A stretch of 7,641 nucleotides of DNA from Escherichia coli (lineage in GTDB: Bacteria; Pseudomonadota; Gammaproteobacteria; Enterobacterales; Enterobacteriaceae): assembly GCF_003334255.1 (NCBI RefSeq), contig NZ_QOWU01000095.1, one strand, 5' to 3'. Below, piece by piece: positions 4,833-5,172 of this stretch. The translations under genes were made by a program, and so were the position numbers. The first letter of the stretch is position 1; the number at the start of each line of letters is the position of its first letter. The notes under the pieces were generated by a model, which had not been told where the DNA came from, searched no databases, and worked only from the letters and a program-made list of their open reading frames with translations.

Positions 4833-5172
4833 TAGATAACCAACGAAGCTAAGGTTGGTAATTAAGGAGTTCTCCACGGGTGAGGTGGAGTGCGTGCGCC
4901 GGACACGGGTGAGCATCCGGCACTGACAGTTTACTGAAAGGATATTTCCCTGAAAAGTCAGACCATAACGCGAAAGCGCACGGCGAGGTAGCTGGTTCAT
5001 AGATAGCCTGTCGTTAAATTTTCGTCGACCGTGCGCTTCCGGTTGTGGCAACCCGCGAAATGGCGCGGCGGTAAGTATGGCGGGGTTATTCCTTCCCCGT
5101 TGAGGACACCGGGTTGTCAGGTTGACCATACGCTTAAGTGACAACCCCGCTGCAACGCCCTCTGTTATCAAT

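Follow-up and report, generated by a model that had tools for sequence, protein, structure and literature searches.

What does the long untranslated RNA do that separates the ydfC-like gene from the small RNA (sRNA) DicF in lambdoid prophages of Escherichia coli? We addressed this question in a 7,641-nucleotide (nt) stretch of E. coli DNA (contig NZ_QOWU01000095.1 of assembly GCF_003334255.1, here called the window), which corresponds to a lambdoid prophage's immunity and early-left region. In the literature the ydfC-DicF spacer appears as the ydfC 3' untranslated region (UTR) or as a "long untranslated region," in which a cut by RNase E generates the 5' end of DicF (PMC5069750, PMC9438474). 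A first-pass annotation, made from the sequence alone, had described it in similar terms, as a structured 340-nt noncoding spacer that probably forms the DicF precursor leader and could hold a further RNA element. We report that such an element is present: positions 5042 to 5156, here called module B, form a conserved pseudoknotted RNA supported by covariation. Module B is a new, widespread structured RNA motif that lies beside DicF and also occurs in phage P1, and its function is probably related to transcription. The accessible published accounts of the DicF region mention no conserved structured element upstream of DicF, and no description of module B was found in the literature searched, although some sequence similarity may have been mentioned earlier.

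RESULTS

Module B is a conserved RNA with a four-helix junction and a pseudoknot

Homologues of module B were collected from IMG/VR, from a set with one genome per species, and from annotated phages. In a covariance-model alignment of 56 distinct sequences, 94.7% of the cells in the proposed helices (Table 1) were paired and 15 of the 36 base pairs had changed on both sides; none of 500 shuffles reached the observed values, and partners slid out of register paired in only 30 to 56% of cells. An alignment fitted to a model is biased towards that model; in a control alignment of 28 sequences made with MAFFT only, 92.4% of cells were still paired, nine pairs showed changes on both sides, and sliding the partners by 1 to 3 columns reduced pairing to 31 to 56%.

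The individual substitutions follow the helices. One pair of helix P1 changes from C-G to U-A in 11 sequences, a pair of P3 changes from U-A to C-G in the phage P7 type, and pairs of P3a occur as G-C, C-G, U-A, and A-U variants; phage P1 has CUGGG/CCCAG in place of CGGGG/CCCCG. The P4 stem reads GGGUAACCA/UGGUUACCC in Izhakiella, and an A-C mismatch found in cdtI is repaired in Citrobacter. The only pseudoknot pair that varies is U-A in 50 sequences, U-G in 2, and C-G in 4; since a single varying position supports it, the pseudoknot is likely rather than proven. Many of the pairs are G-U, which would be A-C mismatches on the other strand; therefore, the structure belongs to the plus-strand RNA.

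Folding energies add less. The minimum-energy fold of the single module B sequence recovers all of the nested helices, and the folding z-scores were -2.0 for module B and -2.1 and -3.3 for the plus and minus strands of the whole spacer. Thermodynamics alone would not justify the finding, which rests on the comparative data. The stability attributed to the region by the first-pass annotation is thus weak when judged by energy, and it is the comparison among homologues, the check proposed there, that lifts the region above chance. Its description as GC-rich is marginal, the content being slightly raised (0.50 to 0.55, compared with about 0.47 for the window). The three hairpins that had been picked out are all in place. 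Two of them, GGGTTGTCA/TGACAACCC at 5111-5119/5139-5147 and the one at 5053-5068, belong to the conserved fold with compensatory changes; the third, at 4898-4921, is conserved without covariation.

An Rfam 15 scan of positions 4000 to 5450 at E <= 10 gave no match overlapping 4833-5173. The DicF model (RF00039, gathering score 48 bits) matched only at 5174-5225, so that the spacer adjoins DicF and is not part of it. ARAGORN found no tRNA or tmRNA gene in the window, and the Rfam tRNA and tmRNA models were silent in the spacer. Genome-wide pattern matches in Geopsychrobacter and Billgrantia were rejected as chance, having no other conserved feature of the element and no match to model R1.

Module B is widespread in E. 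coli and extends to phage P1

Module B was found in 4313 of 5426 complete E. coli genomes (about 80%), at 8966 places and with up to 8 per genome; no annotated feature covered it in the sampled RefSeq rows. E. coli K-12 carries it in the Qin prophage, in the same layout of ydfC, 340 nt, and dicF and with a sequence that matches the window's exactly; even there, beside one of the earliest described bacterial sRNAs, it is unannotated. A further 511 plasmid records from Escherichia, Salmonella, Klebsiella, and Shigella contain it and appear to be phage P1-like, the sampled rows being mostly 85 to 120 kb in size and of P1/P7-like identity. It also occurs in E. albertii, Citrobacter, Trabulsiella, Izhakiella, and Serratia symbiotica.

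In BLAST searches against phages, positions ~5042 to 5164 of the window matched cdtI, Ayreon, 2H10, Stx2c phages, and a Rac-like phage. The match to phages P1 and P7 is limited to positions 5053 to 5149 (77 to 82% identity), and the flanks cannot be aligned. The 64 phage records with the element had it at 64 places, and each of 60 loci gave one match. A "dicF-like region" in the GenBank record of phage P1 overlaps the 3' half of module B, and some sequence similarity was evidently noticed long ago. The conserved element extends far past the Qin-like prophages, for which the first-pass annotation had proposed the comparison, reaching phage P1 and lambdoid phages in which no gene for the antiterminator protein N was found.

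Several metagenome-assembled contigs labelled Bacillota, Collinsella, or Lachnospiraceae (loci L132, L138, L141, and L142) consist of E. coli prophage or phage P1 sequence, and the 254-kb "Aeromonas phage AP1" contains a segment 98% identical to positions 5200 to 5400 of the window. Both are probably the result of binning or assembly contamination.

The spacer consists of two separable modules

The spacer is structured, as first described, but it is not one unit. Upstream of module B lies module A, a mosaic of hairpins whose sub-hairpins are swapped wholesale among loci and show little covariation. The one part retained throughout is the helix that closes its 3' domain, in which compensatory changes are few; the folding z-score of module A is -0.9. 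Positions ~4853 to 5047 match phiSTEC1589, a phage that encodes N, with 83.6% identity; module B matches other phages, and far more of them. In that phage, module A runs directly into GTTGTG-aata-ACAAC, a mini-hairpin that is a remnant of the outer helix of module B, and then into a DicF-like terminator; module B is missing.

One variant (locus L126) lacks the 3' half of module A and the 5' strand of helix P1, and its module A sequence CCCTGAAAAGTCAGACCATAACGCGAAA is joined straight to hairpin P2 of module B. The junction looks like the product of recombination between the similar hairpins AACGCGAAAGCGC and CCGCGAAATGGCG.

Module B precedes diverse terminators in repressor-controlled operons

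Module B is always in the sense orientation within an operon under the control of the immunity repressor, at distances from the promoter that vary. In phage P1 it starts about 45 nt past the -10 element of the C1-controlled promoter Pban; in a Rac-like phage it lies about 190 nt past PL, and the cdtI and Ayreon copies are found 3' of cI within the PL leader, about 280 to 300 nt past the promoter. In the Qin types and in the window it lies 3' of ydfABC.

A scan for a hairpin followed by a T-run placed an intrinsic terminator downstream of module B in 73 of 75 distinct downstream sequences, starting 2 to 70 nt away; in a few variants the hairpin is weak, or an upstream mini-hairpin was reported instead of the terminator. 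These terminators are diverse (among them DicF, several DicF-like variants, the cdtI type, and the GCCCAUC-UUCG-GGUGGGC type of phage P1), and the linkers that join them to module B are unrelated among loci. In the window, the terminator is that of DicF itself (a hairpin of about -16 kcal/mol followed by UUUUU), and the A/U-rich linker in front of it is the reported RNase E processing site for the DicF 5' end (PMC5069750, PMC9438474).

Co-oriented genes that need read-through lie beyond these terminators: dicB, kil, the yfdQ cluster, the phage P1 tRNAs, tciABC, and ban. On its way to ban, the Pban transcript of phage P1 has to get past a strong terminator as well as over 1 kb of RNA that is not translated, including tRNAs and sequence antisense to plp/upl. 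Among the upstream open reading frames (ORFs) of a sample of module B loci, the PHROGs profiles found no N-like protein. Conversely, phiSTEC1589 and Shigella phage 75/02 encode N-like proteins (phrog_271), have the same neighbourhood, and carry only the empty mini-hairpin at the corresponding place.

In phage pPE4, the segment from the 3' strand of helix P1 to the DicF-like terminator is tandemly duplicated (locus L004, 1598-1780), giving two terminators behind one module B. The pPE4 module B lacks the 5' strand of helix P1. The phage is recorded as "Actinobacillus phage vB_Apl-pPE4"; it is Rac-like with E. coli-like sequence, and the stated host looks doubtful.

At four loci (L029, L133, L136, and L015), the terminator is a long hairpin that encloses the Shine-Dalgarno sequence and start codon of a small ORF (MFYRGTAFFTQQ...). 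Judging from this arrangement, termination and initiation of translation of the ORF would compete for the same RNA.

Module B occupies a slot that accepts other RNA cassettes

An outer helix, GUUGUGGU/ACCACAAC, is kept before the first terminator of the left operon while the content that it encloses changes. The PL leaders of cdtI and Stx2a_WGPS2 are shared up to about 45 nt before this slot and are identical again from just before the helix and beyond. In cdtI the slot holds module B. In Stx2a_WGPS2 and mEp460 it is occupied by an insert of about 115 nt that is unrelated and matches neither Rfam nor model R1 (L151, ~2372-2506, and L150). In SfV it holds an STnc100-like domain (L152, 2336-2500), the Rfam STnc100 model covering both this domain and the terminator. 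In phiSTEC1589 and Rac-SA53 it holds the empty mini-hairpin (L006, ~2188-2205, and L148, ~3428-3445). Because the slot content differs between otherwise identical flanks, the RNA cassettes at this fixed position, module B among them, are interchangeable.

STnc100-like elements (RF02076) scored 33 to 44 bits, always under the gathering score of 47, so the Rfam threshold misses copies of them. They precede kilR in Rac-SA53 and tciA in phage P1, in addition to the place before the terminator in SfV; going by these positions, the element looks like a conserved leader for division-inhibitor genes.

The left operon of the window is closely related to that of Qin

The promoter candidate listed in Table 1 is the presumed start of a ydfABC-dicF-dicB operon. 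From ydfC through DicF, the window and K-12 Qin are nearly identical where aligned. The repressors differ: Qin has the short DicA (935-1342 of the Qin locus), whereas the window has a cI-like protein. Because of its S24 peptidase domain, the window prophage repressor is assigned to the cleavable, SOS-inducible type, unlike that of the cryptic Qin.

Table 1. Features of the ydfC-dicB region and their coordinates (window positions unless a locus is named)
Feature	Coordinates	Strand	Remarks
cI-like S24 repressor, 212 aa	3368-4006	+	S24 peptidase domain
PL-like sigma-70 promoter candidate	4091-4119	+	TTGACC-17-TAAACT; consensus match only; 3' of the cI-like repressor gene
ydfA-, ydfB-, and ydfC-like genes	4218-4832	+	Gene order on the plus strand
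ydfC-like gene, 72 aa	4614-4832	+	Last coding gene 5' of the spacer; phrog_1744, E = 1.9e-39
Noncoding ydfC-DicF spacer	4833-5173	+	ydfC ends at 4832; DicF starts at 5174
Module A	~4853-5041	+	Mosaic of hairpins; from phage comparison
Module A hairpin	CTCCAC 4872-4877 / GTGGAG 4885-4890	+	
Module A hairpin	GCCGGA 4898-4903 / TCCGGC 4916-4921	+	
Module A hairpin	CTGAC 4923-4927 / GTCAG 4957-4961	+	
Module A 3' domain, closing helix	4974-4986 / 5025-5038	+	
Module B	5042-5156	+	Conserved RNA of ~115 nt; four-helix junction and pseudoknot; model R1, 159.7 bits
Helix P1 (closing)	GUUGUGGC 5042-5049 / GCUGCAAC 5149-5156	+	Compensatory changes in 4/8 pairs
Hairpin P2, CCGCG-AAAUGG-CGCGG	5053-5057 / 5064-5068	+	97.5% paired; near-invariant, G-U variants only
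Helix P3	CGGU 5069-5072 / ACCG 5108-5111	+	Encloses the 5' pseudoknot strand and P3a
Hairpin P3a	CGGGG 5081-5085 / CCCCG 5095-5099	+	Nested in P3; length-variable, pyrimidine-rich loop
Hairpin P4	GGUUGUCA 5112-5119 / UGACAACC 5139-5146	+	Invariant 19-nt loop; both-side changes in 6/8 pairs
Pseudoknot (likely)	GUAUGG 5075-5080 / CCAUAC 5126-5131	+	3' strand in the P4 loop; 100% of cells paired
Linker, 17 nt, A/U-rich	5157-5173	+	GCCCUCUGUUAUCAAUU; runs up to the DicF 5' end
DicF sRNA	5174-5230	+	RF00039, 76.7 bits over 5174-5225; first intrinsic terminator after module B
STnc100-like structured element	5237-5377	+	RF02076, 38.8 bits, E = 1.5e-6, under the gathering score of 47; between DicF and dicB
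dicB, 62 aa	5400-5588	+	phrog_1251, E = 6e-40; K-12 annotation; first gene requiring DicF-terminator read-through
ydfD	5585-5776	+	3' of dicB
STnc100-like elements in other loci	L148 3492-3681; L001 3842-3961; L152 2336-2551		RF02076

DISCUSSION

In this study, we have identified a conserved RNA directly upstream of the first terminator of the early-left operon. From its observed fold, conservation, strand, and position, and from the near-constant presence of a terminator behind it, we infer an effect on the polymerase or on termination, and we tentatively favor the reading that module B is an antitermination RNA that works in cis and controls read-through at the DicF terminator. Module B, once transcribed, would act on the same RNA polymerase molecule, alone or together with host elongation factors, and would suppress termination at the DicF hairpin and U-tract, 17 to 70 nt downstream; later intrinsic or Rho-dependent sites would probably be suppressed as well. 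It would thereby decide how much of the transcription ends at the terminator, yielding RNA that RNase E trims to the 53-nt DicF, and how much continues into dicB-ydfD. In phages without N and in the ban operon of phage P1, it would fill the role that N and nut have in lambda and put has in HK022.

This reading is favored by the rules that govern the position of the element, by its absence from the N-encoding relatives, by the two tandem terminators of pPE4, which a local switch is hard to reconcile with, and by the long untranslated path from Pban to ban. It is also favored because folds of the element with the terminator 5' half from 12 variants showed no shared antiterminator helix and because no early antiterminator is known for lambdoid phages that combine this type of left operon with the lack of N (PMC12315714). 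If read-through control is indeed its function, module B is a candidate answer to the question, raised in the same study, of how early-left transcription proceeds in lambdoid phages without N. It would then set the balance between two inhibitors of cell division, DicF and DicB. Two pieces of background are consistent with read-through that requires no further phage protein: bac mutants of phage P1 express ban while the rest of the prophage stays repressed, and the K-12 dicBF operon placed under a heterologous promoter produces DicB-dependent effects.

Several observations weigh against antitermination. The association with N is imperfect and rests on few genomes. The strict rule that N excludes module B is kept by both N-encoding phages, but a DicF-like terminator is present without module B or an N-like protein in Rac-SA53 and 666R9; hence the exclusion is only a tendency. 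Module B occurs as a single copy in each of the 64 phage records, whereas HK022 has put in both early operons, and it matches no Rfam antiterminator family and is unrelated to put. In SfV, a domain resembling STnc100, which is classed as an sRNA, fills the slot, and this favors a structured sRNA whose 3' end is the terminator. Finally, a simple scan predicted no further strong terminators downstream in phage P1, Ayreon, or the window, and so lent no support to a need for processivity; the scan is itself uninformative, since it misses even DicF, whose loop is longer than 8 nt.

The put sites of HK022 offer one parallel. They suppress termination in cis, independently of phage proteins and in dependence on the zinc-binding domain of the beta' subunit. 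Like put, module B is a folded sense RNA in a repressor-controlled early operon, upstream of terminators, in phages in which a sampled PHROGs check found no N. The putL site lies close to its promoter (PMC9378689), as does module B in phage P1. The two differ in build: put forms two stem-loops in about 70 nt, whereas the roughly 115 nt of module B fold into a pseudoknotted four-helix junction that includes a nested hairpin. They also differ in number, put being present in each early operon and module B once per phage. Model R1 gave no match at E <= 10 to HK022 positions 24000 to 34000, which cover the region between IS903 and gene O and contain the put sites. An Rfam scan of the HK022 immunity region returned matches at chance level only, and the idea that STnc100 belongs to the put family was rejected because HK022 has no STnc100 match. 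A second parallel is the eps-associated RNA (EAR) of Bacillus, a processive antiterminator, which resembles module B in size, in its complex pseudoknotted fold, and in lying within an operon with coding genes on either side, as module B does in Qin. It differs in belonging to another host phylum; module B has no Rfam match at E <= 10, and there is no evidence of homology. From these comparisons, module B may work in the manner of put or EAR, a view that we hold tentatively, but none of the structural tests placed it in the put family. It is doubtful at present that module B adds to put and EAR a third class of antiterminator RNA, one that acts in cis without proteins and has an unrelated structure. 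Such an RNA would be housed in a conserved slot, closed by GUUGUGGY/RCCACAAC directly before the first early-left terminator, in which the WGPS2/mEp460 insert or an STnc100-like domain can take the place of module B. If this held, it would account for passage through the first terminators in N-less lambdoid phages, in the ban operon of phage P1, and in the dicB operon of Qin.

The lambda N/nut system would fill the same genomic role, and relatives that encode N keep the neighbourhood without module B; the sampled module B loci differ in having no N-like protein. No boxA (GCTCTTTA) with at most one mismatch occurs in the left operon of the window. The 5' flank of helix P1 (window 5033-5041) is weakly boxA-like, with 5 to 7 of 8 matches to GCUCUUUA; it reads GCGCUUCC in the Qin types, GCUCUCAG in the cdtI type, and GCUCUUUC in Trabulsiella, and phage P1 has nothing similar. 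This likeness may be due to chance.

In the main alternative, an sRNA-like transcript ends at the adjacent terminator, and module B, its structured 5' domain, acts after transcription. As a stable RNA it could bind or sequester some factor of host or phage; otherwise it could be a platform for processing and stability that fixes the RNase E cut and releases DicF or its variants. We consider this alternative somewhat unlikely. The hairpin and U-tract behind nearly all scanned copies fit it, as DicF-type ends bind Hfq (PMC5069750). So does phage P1, in which a promoter, about 25 nt, module B, and a terminator together resemble a stand-alone gene for an RNA of ~190 nt. The SfV slot, in which the Rfam "sRNA" model spans domain and terminator, points the same way, and the swapping of cassettes between identical flanks is typical of determinants of specificity or conflict. 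STnc100, a family of sRNAs from prophages of Gammaproteobacteria, in SfV shares with module B the slot closed by helix P1 and the type of terminator, and the window, Rac-type phages, and phage P1 have both elements. STnc100 differs in sequence and fold; module B gives no STnc100 match, and the copy in the window follows DicF. The cloverleaf-like topology of the four helices, together with the A/U-rich RNase E site, might also resemble a processing signal of the tRNA type, but ARAGORN and Rfam found nothing tRNA-like. Rac-SA53 and 666R9, which cope without module B or N, support this alternative, yet DicF-like RNAs persist in relatives without module B, which is therefore not needed to make them. 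Furthermore, the operon genes that require read-through are always downstream, and no target or partner can be named. The spacer is indeed, as the literature and the first-pass annotation have it, part of the RNA from which RNase E releases DicF (PMC5069750, PMC9438474); however, a role as DicF precursor leader is insufficient to account for the conservation of module B, because module B also precedes terminators other than that of DicF.

It is less likely still that module B is the sensor of a riboswitch-like attenuator, in which a small ligand, a tRNA, or a protein decides whether the terminator forms and so couples dicB or kil to a cellular signal. Its build is aptamer-like, with a multihelix junction closed by helix P1, a pseudoknot, invariant nucleotides in the junction and loops, variable peripheral hairpins, and a terminator directly 3', and its topology may resemble that of four-way-junction aptamers such as SAM-I. 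A classic riboswitch platform is nevertheless disfavored, because no mutually exclusive pairing between module B and the 5' half of the terminator is conserved across terminator types. Folds of module B, linker, and terminator 5' half from 12 variants had no alternative helix in common; the terminator boundaries are imprecise in several of them, and pairings specific to single variants are possible. The spacing of 2 to 70 nt, the unrelated linkers, and the two terminators behind the single element of pPE4 also speak against such a switch, no Rfam riboswitch family matched, and the gene context suggests no ligand.

A third alternative, which we regard as improbable, is that the spacer is a mere precursor leader, its hairpins just keeping a long untranslated RNA structured against Rho loading and nucleases, and that it spread by hitchhiking with DicF and dicB. 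This suits module A, with its mosaic structure, sparse covariation, and weak z-score of -0.9, and it would fit the modest thermodynamic signal of the whole spacer. It does not suit module B, which is conserved between phage P1 and the lambdoid prophages while the flanks are not, which has invariant loops and compensatory changes in its stems, and which is present without DicF or dicB in phage P1 and cdtI.

That the spacer encodes a protein, either in the 124-aa minus-strand ORF (4797-5171) or in the 36-aa GTG ORF at 5031-5141, the sole plus-strand ORF of at least 30 aa, is extremely improbable: the former matches no PHROG family, and although the latter matches phrog_8854 (E = 7.4e-12) and several phage records annotate a "hypothetical protein" over module B, the distances between two invariant motifs within it fall into all three classes modulo 3 (21, 23, and 12 of the 56 distinct homologues at 0, 1, and 2), many homologues have in-frame stops, and substitutions track base pairing rather than codon positions. 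The noncoding character given to the region at the outset is thus borne out. Because the frame is not conserved, phrog_8854 appears most simply to consist of ORFs miscalled over a conserved RNA. Whatever its mechanism, module B merits an Rfam family, which would clear this spurious protein family from phage annotation.

Other structured RNAs were seen in the same phages. The rightward operon of cdtI, 3' of cro, carries a C4 antisense RNA (RF01695, 68.4 bits; L002, 40-127, minus strand) and an IsrK-like RNA (RF01394, 60 bits; L002, 152-228, minus strand).

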